A stretch of DNA of 56,388 nucleotides from Candidatus Saccharimonadales bacterium (GTDB taxonomy: Bacteria; Patescibacteriota; Saccharimonadia; Saccharimonadales; UBA10212), in NCBI GenBank assembly GCA_040879175.1, contig JBBDKW010000018.1:1-56388 (forward strand), given 5' to 3'. Position numbers and translations under genes: made by a program. Under the pieces are notes generated by a model. The model ran no database searches. It was given only the letters and a program-made list of their open reading frames with translations, and was not told where the DNA came from. Positions 208 to 8,165 of the stretch are shown here, piece after piece (position 1 is the first letter of the stretch; each line of letters begins with the position of its first letter).

Positions 208-1167
208 TTAGATTTCGGTTTTGACACTCGGCCCCATTGTACTTGCGATGTACGCCGACTTGACATACGTACCCTTAACGCTTGCCGGCTTCGCCGAACG
301 TACGCTGGTGGCAATTGTTTGGGCGTTCTCAAGCAGTTTCTGCGGGCCAAAGCTCACTTTGCCGATTCCAAGATGAATTATCCCGCTCTGATCGACACGA
401 TATTCGACTCGGCCGGCCCTTGCTTCTTTTACAGCCTTGCCAGTATCGGTTGTGACTGTGCCGCTTTTAGGGTTGGGCATTAGCCCTTTTGGACCTAGTA
501 AACGGGCATATTTGCCAAGTTTAGACATAAGAGCGGGAGTAGAAATCAGAATATCGAAATCTACCCTTTCCTTATCGAGTGCTGTTAAGATTTCTTCGTT
601 GCCGGCAATATCGGCGCCGGCCTTTTTAGCCTTATCAATATCATCACCTTCAGCAAAAACGGCAATTCTAACTGCCTTGCCGGTGCCGTGCGGCATAACC
701 ACCGTATCTCGGACATTCTGATCAGATTGCTTTGGGTCTACCGCCAGGTTTATATGCATCTCCACTGTGGCGTCGAACTTGGAAGTAGAGGTCTTGGCCG
801 CCAGATCTACGGCTTCGGCTAAATTATAGACTTTGGACTTATCAATTTGTTTGATGGCTTCCCGATATTTCTTACCAGCGCGTTCGTCGTGGCTGCGCGG
901 TGATTTTTGCTCGATTTTCGGCTTCTCCGCTTTGGCGTCTTTTGCCGGTTGCTCTTTCTTTCGTTCTTGCTTAGCAACTTTCTCGTCAGCCACCTTCACG
1001 GCTTTGGCGCTGCGCTTCCCGGCTTTTGCGACCACAGCCTCTTCTTGCTGCGATTTTTTCCCAGTAGTGAGCTTTCGCGTGGCTTTGCCGGTATCCGCCT
1101 CAGCGGATAGTCGCGAAAGTCTACTACTGGGTTTCGCAATCTTATCTGTTTCTTTAGCGTCAGTCAT
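208..1167 (-). CDS. rplA: 50S ribosomal protein L1 with a ~95-aa Lys/Ala/Glu-rich N-terminal extension
   Basis: The 319-aa ORF has a core from GKKYREAIKQIDKSKVYNLAEAVDL onward that is canonical L1. The ATG lies 3 nt after the rplK stop, and there is no in-frame ATG/GTG/TTG near the core start. Confidence 0.95.
   Translation of the reverse strand: MTDAKETDKIAKPSSRLSRLSAEADTGKATRKLTTGKKSQQEEAVVAKAGKRSAKAVKVADEKVAKQERKKEQPAKDAKAEKPKIEQKSPRSHDERAGKKYREAIKQIDKSKVYNLAEAVDLAAKTSTSKFDATVEMHINLAVDPKQSDQNVRDTVVMPHGTGKAVRIAVFAEGDDIDKAKKAGADIAGNEEILTALDKERVDFDILISTPALMSKLGKYARLLGPKGLMPNPKSGTVTTDTGKAVKEARAGRVEYRVDQSGIIHLGIGKVSFGPQKLLENAQTIATSVRSAKPASVKGTYVKSAYIASTMGPSVKTEI
1060..1131. mobile_element. Nested-palindrome MITE-like element, copy 1, in frame inside the rplA 5' extension
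   Basis: The sequence cccagtagtgagctttcgcg...tatccgcctcagcggata...gtcgcgaaagtctactactggg shares both ~20-nt arms and the inner hairpin with 7192..7273. It is flanked by TTTC on both sides. Confidence 0.55.
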
Positions 1168-6519: not shown

Positions 6520-7170
6520 TTAGATGACTACTTTTCGAGGGCGAAGGACTTTTTTGGGGCGGTTGGGTAGCGCGCTTCGGTTAAGCTTGCGGCGGACTTT
6601 AACAGCTTCTTCGCCCATACCGCGCAATTCGTAGGCATTCATCAGCAGGTTATAGGTTTCGTTGTTCGGCTCTAACTCGGCGGCTTTTTCTAGTTCTTGC
6701 AGCATAAGTTTATCGTTGCCGAGTTTTTCCTGGACTTTGGCATAAGCTATATGGCGGGCAGCCAAGTCATCCTCAAGCTTTAGAGCCTGCTCGAATGCCG
6801 TTGCTGCTTTCTGGTAGTTCTCTGTCTCGTAATAGATTAACCCGAGGTTATGCAGGCTTGAAGCGCTGGGTTCGATACTACTGGCTATTTCGAAGCAGTC
6901 GATAGCATCTTTGTACTCTCGCTGCTTGGCGTATAAGATTCCTAGGCGGTTATAGGCTGCGGCATTTTTCTCATCAATTTTTAGGATAGTTAGGAGTGCT
7001 TTTTCAGCCCGTAAAAAGCGGTTTTCGCGCATACCGTGGTGGGCGATTTCCCAGAGCTTGGCTAACCGGTCGCCCAAACGACGCGTCACTAACGTAGTTT
7101 CGTCATCGATGTATCGGCTGTGGCGAAGTACAAAGTACGCAATCAGTACTAACAGTAATAGGGCATACAT
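6520..7170 (-). CDS. TPR-repeat protein with an N-terminal membrane anchor
   Basis: The 216-aa ORF starts with a TM helix (MYALLLLVLIAYFVL). Repeated A..YN.LG..Y....Y..A...FE.A TPR signatures follow. Confidence 0.7.
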   Translation of the reverse strand: MYALLLLVLIAYFVLRHSRYIDDETTLVTRRLGDRLAKLWEIAHHGMRENRFLRAEKALLTILKIDEKNAAAYNRLGILYAKQREYKDAIDCFEIASSIEPSASSLHNLGLIYYETENYQKAATAFEQALKLEDDLAARHIAYAKVQEKLGNDKLMLQELEKAAELEPNNETYNLLMNAYELRGMGEEAVKVRRKLNRSALPNRPKKVLRPRKVVI

Positions 7171-7191
7171 TGCTTAGGTAATTATAACAGA

Positions 7192-7273
7192 CCCAGTAGT
7201 GAGCTTTCGCGGTTATCCGCCTGCGCGGATACAGTATCGACAGAGTCGATAGTCGTGAAAGTCTACTACTGGG
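7192..7273. mobile_element. Nested-palindrome MITE-like element, copy 2 (intergenic, holB-TPR spacer)
   Basis: It has the same arms as 1060..1131 (left arm 20/20, right arm 21/22), an inner hairpin tatccgc/gcggata, and an extra palindrome tatcgac-aga-gtcgata. It is flanked by CAGAC on both sides. Confidence 0.6.
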
Positions 7274-7277
7274 CAGA

Positions 7278-8165
7278 CTAACTTTTTAGATTAAGAACCA
7301 AGCTTAGACAGATTAGCCGGGGGTTGGCGTTTTTATCAAGCGACTCAAGCGAACTCATCGTTAATTTTCTGTCGCCTGCCAGTTTTTGTGCCTGTTTTGG
7401 CCTTTTACCTAAGGCGCTGCGGTGCAGCGCCGCCAGAATCTTGGTAAGAGCTTCCAGAAGCAATCTAAGCTCTTCTTTATCCTGGCTTATTTGATCAAGA
7501 GACAACAGCCGCTCGTATTGGGTCTGTTTCAAAAAAGACTTGGCCTTTTCTATCGCCTGCTTAAGCGGATGCGAGCCTTCCTCAGCCAGAAGCGCATCTA
7601 ATAGGGCTGAACCTCCCTGGCTTAAACGCCAAGCCGATTCCATTTTCTGACGGCTAATCCGGCCGCCATAGAACCTATCCGCTTGCTGTAACGTCACCGG
7701 ATGCGCCCAGATGTGCTGGCAACGCGAAACGATTGTCGGCAGCAGGCTCAACTCGTAAGGCGCCGTCAGCAAGAACATCGTGTCTTCGTTGGGCTCTTCC
7801 AATATCTTAAGCAGGGCGTTCTGGGCTTCGGCGCTTAAATTCTGTGAATCCTCGATTAAAACAACCCGGCGGATAGCCGATTTCCCGGGAGTTCTTAAAC
7901 GTAAAAAGCGGTTAATTTCTCTTACAGTGTCGATTGATATATCCTGTTTGCCCTCGTTCTTCTTGGCGTAAAAGAAGTAGGGATGGGCTAAAAGCTGTTG
8001 CATTGACTTGAGACCCAAGGCCGAGCAGGCCAACGAGTAAACCAAGCCTCGCTTACCGCTGCCCCTCTCACCCAGAATAAGTAGCGGGCTATACGGTTTT
8101 TGCAAGAAATAATCGGCCTGTTCTTTAGTTTTAGGGTGAACTAGCAAATTGCTTAAGTCAGTCAT
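7278..8165 (-). CDS. holB: DNA polymerase III subunit delta-prime
   Basis: The 295-aa ORF has a degenerate P-loop (GERGSGKRG), NALLKILEEP and SRCQ motifs typical of clamp-loader delta-prime. Confidence 0.8.
   Translation of the reverse strand: MTDLSNLLVHPKTKEQADYFLQKPYSPLLILGERGSGKRGLVYSLACSALGLKSMQQLLAHPYFFYAKKNEGKQDISIDTVREINRFLRLRTPGKSAIRRVVLIEDSQNLSAEAQNALLKILEEPNEDTMFLLTAPYELSLLPTIVSRCQHIWAHPVTLQQADRFYGGRISRQKMESAWRLSQGGSALLDALLAEEGSHPLKQAIEKAKSFLKQTQYERLLSLDQISQDKEELRLLLEALTKILAALHRSALGKRPKQAQKLAGDRKLTMSSLESLDKNANPRLICLSLVLNLKS

Follow-up and report, generated by a model that had tools for sequence, protein, structure and literature searches.

The window analysed here, a stretch of 56,388 nucleotides, is contig C18 of G000, a 549-kb assembly of 18 contigs that is 81% complete. 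The names given to homologous proteins are in line with a Saccharibacteria genome. At 7192-7273 it contains an 82-bp non-coding element, situated between two genes of the minus strand: holB (7278-8165), which encodes a DNA polymerase III delta-prime-like protein (Pfam PF13177, DNA_pol3_delta2, 8.1e-23), and, downstream of the element, the gene of a TPR-repeat protein (6520-7170; Pfam TPR families). On the plus strand the element runs from a GAGC end to a GTCT end, and its whole layout is CCCAGTAGT-GAGC-TTTCGCG-GT-[TATCCGC CTGC GCGGATA]-CAG-[TATCGAC AGA GTCGATA]-GT-CGTGAAA-GTCT-ACTACTGGG. From the outside inwards, outer arms (CCCAGTAGT, 7192-7200, and ACTACTGGG, 7265-7273) are followed by a fixed mismatched block, GAGC (7201-7204) opposite GTCT (7261-7264), and by a second helix of TTTCGCG (7205-7211) and CGTGAAA (7254-7260). 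These parts make up a left terminal repeat at 7192-7211 (CCCAGTAGT, GAGC, TTTCGCG) and a right terminal repeat at 7254-7273 (CGTGAAA, GTCT, ACTACTGGG), both given for the plus strand, and the right repeat stands three fixed transitions apart from the inverted left end. The core consists of two hairpins, one at 7214-7231 (TATCCGC, 7214-7220; CTGC; GCGGATA, 7225-7231) and one at 7235-7251 (TATCGAC, 7235-7241; AGA; GTCGATA, 7245-7251), the latter a palindrome that had already been picked out in an earlier, sequence-only reading of this DNA and is indeed present.

The element is predicted to fold into a three-way structure, and the folding check suggested by that reading returned a stable fold for both strands: -39.4 kcal/mol for the RNA of the minus strand (z = -7.36) and -25.2 kcal/mol for the DNA of the plus strand (z = -7.45), with 0/200 shuffles as good in either case.

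Both ends are flanked by the tetranucleotide CAGA (7188-7191 and 7274-7277), and the right copy adjoins the holB stop codon (CTA on the plus strand, 7278-7280). Read along the minus strand, the order is the holB stop TAG (7280-7278), TCTG, the element, TCTG and TTATAAT. The second of these junctions contains an extended -10-like box ahead of the TPR gene, TGTTATAAT (minus strand, 7189 down to 7181), which takes its TG from the left CAGA copy and lies ~10 nt from the ATG at 7170. This box, noticed beside the left end in the sequence-only reading, is real: its TATAAT is kept in 4/4 congeners compared, and TG-N-TATAAT in the three of them that have an empty site. A consensus promoter scan found no full -35/-10 promoter; judged by its letters, TGTTATAAT may act as a promoter.

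A second copy in the window, 72 bp long (1060-1131), lies in frame within an N-terminal extension of rplA (ORF 208-1167, minus strand), in whose product Pfam Ribosomal_L1 covers residues 125-313 of 319. The claim that the two copies have their arms in common is borne out, because the left 20-mer of the 7192 copy recurs exactly at 1060-1079 (0.01 matches expected from shuffling) and the right 20-mer with one mismatch at 1112-1131 (0.00 expected); the inner hairpin TATCCGC/GCGGATA is likewise found in both. The rplA copy had also been described as bracketed by TTTC, which is correct for its right flank only: the left flank is TTTT, and 3/4 positions are equal.

The empty site in congeners

In three congeners (G001, G003 and G004) the orthologous site reads AATTATA-N-CAGA-(C/T)TAA, with a single CAGA and no element, and the filled site of G000 reads AATTATAACAGA[82 nt]CAGACTAA. 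Since the empty sites have one CAGA, the insertion in G000 duplicated these 4 bp, and the mobility of the element is thereby shown. The target-site duplication suspected in the sequence-only reading is thus real, but not in the form CAGAC, as the empty sites show 4 bp and not 5: the fifth C belongs on the left to the element, as its first base, and on the right to the holB stop codon, again as its first base. For the same reason the right-hand repeat does not overlap the stop codon, as had been thought, and only adjoins it at 7278-7280. What separates holB from the TPR gene is thus a hairpin that inserted recently and not a conserved regulator, a point of modest practical weight for this locus. 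The element entered the 4-bp spacer CAGA that lay between the holB stop and the extended -10 box of the following gene, and by the duplication of this spacer the TG of the box was retained or regenerated.

A different insert of ~37 nt, TAGCTTCGCACCAGGAAAGACTATGTTTCCTTCCTCG, is present at the same promoter/stop junction in G005 (C7, 1975-2035, orthologous to window 7175-7290), between two copies of AATTATA. Its presence at the same place suggests that small inserts enter this junction repeatedly, as at a hot spot.

A dispersed family in three size classes

A genome-wide search of G000 with the arms, which in its first round admitted ends with up to 5 mismatches in 20, recovered 14 copies, many more than the two of the window. 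Five are short forms of 72-84 nt (C18:1060, C18:7192, C3:17966, C5:22616 and C14:16936), eight are long forms of 155-162 nt (on contigs C1, C3, C5, C7, C8 and C15), and one is a coding member of 313 nt (C15:1317-1629). A fifteenth 11-mer match proved to be a chance match within a coding region and was discarded. Ends of ~20 bp, CCCRGTAGT-GAGC-TTTCG and CGAAA-GTCT-ACTAYYGGG, are common to all classes, which family-wide comprise 313-bp coding, ~157-bp long non-coding and 72-90-bp short non-coding elements. The same three classes occur among the 17 motif matches of G016, a genome of another genus assembled into one 776-kb contig, and in one case a short element is nested within a long one. Class-wide, an exact 13-mer search gave single matches about as often as a reversed control, so that lone matches outside the family are unreliable.

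The 4-bp flanks are identical in 17/36 copies from six genomes (G000, G016 and four further loci) and agree at 3/4 positions in 10 more, versus 3.4% perfect pairs in a control in which the left flank of one copy was combined with the right flank of another. The targets give a loose, palindromic logo, (G/T)-[Y-W-W-R]-(C), with YWWR as the consensus. According to the sequence-only reading this would be a mobile, MITE-like repeat whose flanks resemble a target-site duplication, and the 14 copies, the family-wide duplications and the polymorphic locus all support it.

Copies are found in either orientation, in frame within coding regions (the C3:17966 copy sits inside a 527-aa ORF) and at unrelated loci. 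In G000 two non-coding copies, C5:22613-22696 and C1:8561-8725, lie on host start codons and have the ATG duplicated; the C5 copy (77 nt) and its 4-bp duplication add up to 81 nt in frame, a possible 27-residue N-terminal extension of the 360-aa protein encoded downstream. All eight long forms of G000 have the orientation of the gene beside or downstream of them, and in G016 at least L017 and L026 are oppositely oriented at start codons. The bias in G000 may be due to chance or may be tied to the direction of replication.

The holB copy is small and non-coding (82 bp), has 20-bp terminal inverted repeats that are complementary save for a fixed 3-base block, possesses a target-site duplication that was checked against an empty site, and belongs to a dispersed multi-copy family (14 copies in G000, 17 in G016). 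Its interpretation as a non-autonomous, gene-less MITE of a foldback transposable-element family in Saccharibacteria is supported by these characters. The family is active in Saccharibacteria, whose reduced genomes have few insertion sequences otherwise, and lands at start codons, at stop codons, at promoters and, in frame, in the essential rplA; with such landing sites gene annotation is affected, and possibly gene expression too.

Folded ends and long forms

The two ends of the elements covary: across 36 elements, 559/576 stem cells are Watson-Crick pairs. Variants of the second helix include CGAG/CTCG, CGCG/CGCG, CTGG/CCAG, CTGT/ACAG, CCAG/CTGG and CGAT/ATCG, several of them in one genome. 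Each copy thus has ends that fit one another rather than a single consensus for protein binding, an argument for the recognition, at some stage, of a cruciform or of a single strand in folded form. GAGC is present in 35/36 copies and GTCT, which stands opposite it, in 36/36, an invariance that was partly made by the search because the search motif contained GAGC/GTCT. The block pairs as G.U, A.C, G.U on the left-to-right strand and as A.C, G.U, A.C on the other, and at the variable positions of the end stems a strand bias is absent (G.T 7 vs A.C 10).

The C14 copy of G000 (C14:16936-17019) has the same two inner hairpins as 7192-7273, nearly identical and inverted relative to the ends, and the core is thus without fixed polarity. 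Compared with each other, the two copies show a flip-flop-like arrangement relative to the asymmetric GAGC/GTCT ends.

For the long forms, an alignment of fourteen copies (G000 and G016) was checked for four helices: the two terminal ones, helix A (TTATTCGAC with GTCGAATAA) and helix B (CAGCTCGTC with GACGAGCTG). Pairing is found in 97.9% of the helix cells, 10 pairs have changed on both sides, and the covariation score was reached by 0/500 shuffles; when the 3' partners were slid by 1-3 columns, pairing dropped to 24-47%. Interleaved helix pairs with compensatory changes are seen in individual long forms of G000 (e.g. L001:1001-1158 and L006:1001-1160) as ATTATTCGAC/GTCGAATAAT and CAGCTCGTC/GACGAGCTG. 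The order of the helices, A, B, A', B', is a pseudoknot topology, and such an order is unusual for a DNA repeat. Mismatches in the long forms have no strand bias (G.T 8 vs A.C 10). The long forms are non-coding, with stop codons in most frames, each frame stopped in several copies and none open throughout. A second repeat family based on CAGCTCGTC was considered and rejected, its occurrences outside the elements being near chance (8 vs ~4 expected).

A nuclease gene that fills its element

The coding member of G000 (C15:1317-1629) is filled end to end by the ORF of a 104-aa GIY-YIG nuclease (Pfam GIY-YIG, 6e-18). The nuclease ATG lies directly outside the left end and the TAG inside the right end, and one base past the TAG follows the ATG of a Mg-chelatase/ComM-like host gene. 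Nuclease elements of 312-313 bp with the same ends are present in G000, G010, G016, G017, G041 and G044, at no fewer than four different, unrelated host loci, and the full-length orthologues of the latter five genomes have 62-72% identity. In 6/6 genomes the nuclease ORF takes its ATG from outside the left end, at the start codon of a host gene. This ATG stands immediately 5' of the left end in 5/6 of the elements. The exception is G017 (L044, C2, 1411-1812), in which an 86-bp short element lies in frame between the captured ATG and the nuclease element; the ORF would thereby gain a 30-residue N-terminal extension.

The nuclease is intact and conserved. In a large protein collection we found 63 distinct 104-aa orthologues that align without gaps; five of their positions do not vary at all (Y14, Y25, G27, H39, E71), and R35 hardly varies. 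The residues encoded by the terminal repeats, MPSSELS and QKVYY, are invariant or nearly invariant as well, and in 63/63 the terminal repeats supply the codons of both protein termini. Database names of these proteins are limited to 'GIY-YIG nuclease family protein', 'putative endonuclease' and 'hypothetical protein'. The closest solved structures, with weak E-values, are UPF0213 proteins (1ZG2, 1YWL) and SLX1, a proximity that points to the structure-specific nuclease branch of the GIY-YIG superfamily. Pfam and structure searches of the 104-aa protein revealed no DNA-binding domain and no NUMOD, and the NCBIfam model for group I intron endonucleases gave 24.7 bits vs a cut-off of 56. A GIY-YIG homing endonuclease gene of the I-TevI/Seg type was rejected as an explanation, given the bare catalytic domain of 104 aa and its presence at four or more unrelated loci.

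Two more small GIY-YIG genes of G000, C3:16269-16469 (minus strand) and C7:2349-2549 (plus strand), are without the family ends and lie beside tRNA genes; the one on C7 has on one side what seems to be part of the 5' portion of a tRNA and on the other a complete tRNA-Leu-like gene. The 124-nt L020 of G016 was considered as a deletion derivative of a nuclease element, but the similarity beyond the ends is modest, which is suggestive and not proof.

What moves the copies

From the features described above, the 313-bp C15 member is likely the trans-acting partner of the 82-bp element; we infer both that its GIY-YIG nuclease mobilises the copies and by what chemistry this happens. That the element at 7192-7273 is a MITE of a GIY-YIG-nuclease foldback family, with the nuclease probably acting in trans, has in our estimate a probability of about 70%. 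The nuclease, nearest to UPF0213/SLX1 and without a DNA-binding domain, would have as its substrate element ends whose mutual pairing into a foldback is required. It would make or use a 4-nt staggered break at the loose YWWR target, and gap filling of this break would produce the duplication. The ATG of the nuclease in the 313-bp elements is the duplicated start codon of a host gene. A more far-reaching proposal takes the 104-aa protein as the sole transposase of an unrecognised class of bacterial insertion sequences (~313 bp, among the smallest autonomous ones), with recognition of folded ends, expression via host start codons and two kinds of gene-less derivatives, including the pseudoknot-like ~157-nt long form; for this proposal we see even odds. 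The GIY-YIG domain catalyses hydrolysis, and we know of no strand-transfer activity in GIY-YIG enzymes, so that integration would need extra steps or host repair.

The distribution of the nuclease gives a measure of support. Within the genus only G000 has the nuclease element and only G000 has a burst of copies (14), and six congeners have 0-1 motif matches and no full-length nuclease orthologue. In a comparison of 49 genomes of the family, from which the nuclease element's own match was subtracted, at least 5 motif matches occur in 4/6 nuclease carriers vs 4/43 non-carriers, an association that is supportive and not decisive, since related genomes do not count as independent samples and the partner that mobilises a MITE is often lost before the MITE itself. 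Pointing the other way, MITEs of different genera resemble each other in their ends more than they resemble the nuclease element resident with them, which has CTGG in its second helix, vs CGAG or CGCG in the MITEs.

It is also conceivable, if rather unlikely, that the element is a genuine MITE with another mover, be it a transposase that was missed or has been lost, a Y1/HUH enzyme or recombination by the host, and that the GIY-YIG gene is a passenger or a second parasite with acquired ends. Three genomes rich in copies, G046 (13), G064 (10) and G060 (7), are without a close nuclease orthologue, and Y1_Tnp (PF01797) as well as reverse transcriptase genes are present in G016 and G017: the Y1_Tnp-like ORFs (206-234 aa) at G016:C1:765171-765398, G017:C14:4423-4653 and G017:C27:5875-6105, the reverse-transcriptase-like ORFs (309-327 aa) at G016:C1:295094-295576 and G017:C5:43380-44000. 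The incompleteness of G000 (81%) leaves room for another enzyme, as does the fact that GIY-YIG enzymes are not known to join DNA. On the other hand, neither Y1_Tnp nor reverse transcriptase genes were found in G000 and G010, no motif match lies near the Y1 gene of G016 at 765 kb, and Y1/HUH elements make no target duplication and are without terminal inverted repeats. TnpB was represented by one sub-threshold match only, in G016. The sequence-only reading was right that the window holds no transposase, and the whole assembly is likewise without a detected DDE transposase: PF01609, PF00665, PF13546, PF13586 and PF13358 had no match in four carriers (G000, at 81% completeness, G016, G010 and G017). 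A derivative of an IS5/IS701/IS3-type element, families that make 3-4-bp duplications, was rejected on this result from the four genomes. Against a passenger speaks that the nuclease ORF fills its element exactly, its terminal codons being the repeats in 63/63 orthologues; cargo genes in transposons do not fill an element in this way, with the repeats as terminal codons.

It is far less probable still that the hairpin is a host-selected structured RNA, acting on holB from its 3' side as a stabiliser or attenuator, or else regulating the TPR gene. The very stable fold on the transcribed minus strand, the precise placement with a stop codon on one side and a promoter-like box on the other, and the mild strand asymmetry of the fixed block (G.U, A.C, G.U on the left-to-right strand) would fit a functional RNA. 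However, the site is empty in three congeners, copies lie in either orientation, in frame in coding regions and at unrelated loci, the inner hairpins of the C14 copy are inverted relative to its ends, and variable stem positions show no strand bias (8 vs 10 in the long forms, 7 vs 10 in the ends). In addition, no T-tract follows the stem, Rfam gave no match at the gathering threshold in the window, and for seven long-form loci its sole match at E<=1 was a chance sraL.

A palindromic unit of the REP/BIME type with a RAYT (Y1) transposase as its mover, which the GTAG tetranucleotide near the 5' end of each arm and the Y1_Tnp genes of two related genomes might recall, was rejected as barely credible, because a 4-bp duplication of the target, verified here by the empty site, is foreign to REP units, G000 and G010 gave no match to PF01797, and the ends are common to a GIY-YIG ORF and not to a RAYT.

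Comparison with known systems

The MITE of the holB-TPR junction, probably mobilised by a GIY-YIG nuclease, resembles bacterial MITEs with long stem-forming repeats (Correia/NEMIS of Neisseria, ERIC and RUP; PMC10969869), which are small and non-coding, with terminal inverted repeats and a duplication. The likeness to Correia, ERIC and RUP extends to multiple copies at gene junctions, co-transcription with genes and presence/absence polymorphism between relatives. However, the duplication of the Correia elements is TA, whereas it is 4 bp at YWWR in the present family. Unlike in Correia, ERIC and RUP, the ends are common to a 313-bp element with a GIY-YIG gene only, and not to an insertion sequence with a DDE transposase, and they covary like a helix and have a fixed asymmetry of three transitions.

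Rickettsia palindromic elements (RPEs) are palindromic and occur in frame in genes, as do the copies in rplA (1060-1131), at C3:17966 and at the N-terminus at C5:22616. There is no sequence relationship between the two groups, and in contrast to RPEs, for which no coding partner is known to us, the family described here includes a member with a nuclease gene and shows clear duplications of 4 bp. Structurally the element is a MITE in every respect, and it is not a member of the Correia/ERIC or RPE families.

As a selfish nuclease gene that inserts between or at host genes, the coding member is reminiscent of free-standing GIY-YIG homing endonuclease genes (seg of phage T4) and of the ORFs in CPR rRNA insertions (PMC11270868). 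The GIY-YIG ORFs of these CPR insertions occur in non-intron sequences and apparently were not spread by homing (PMC11270868). Unlike homing endonuclease genes, the nuclease described here consists of a 104-aa catalytic domain alone, without NUMOD or any other DNA-binding module, and its element has terminal inverted repeats, duplications at many unrelated sites and gene-less derivatives. To our knowledge, none of these three features (inverted terminal repeats, target duplication at multiple sites, gene-less derivatives) occurs in homing endonuclease genes.

With IS200/IS605 and their PATE/REP derivatives the family has in common its tiny size, hairpin-folded ends and miniature non-coding derivatives, but those elements are without inverted terminal repeats or target duplication and use a Y1 HUH transposase, which is absent from G000 and G010. 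A full-text search of the literature found no published description of GIY-YIG elements that are bounded by inverted repeats and make duplications. The bacterial transposons known to us rely on DDE, HUH, serine or tyrosine enzymes. If our interpretation is correct, a bare GIY-YIG catalytic domain as the only gene would represent a new enzymatic route of transposition beside these, and the family would define an exceptionally small autonomous element.
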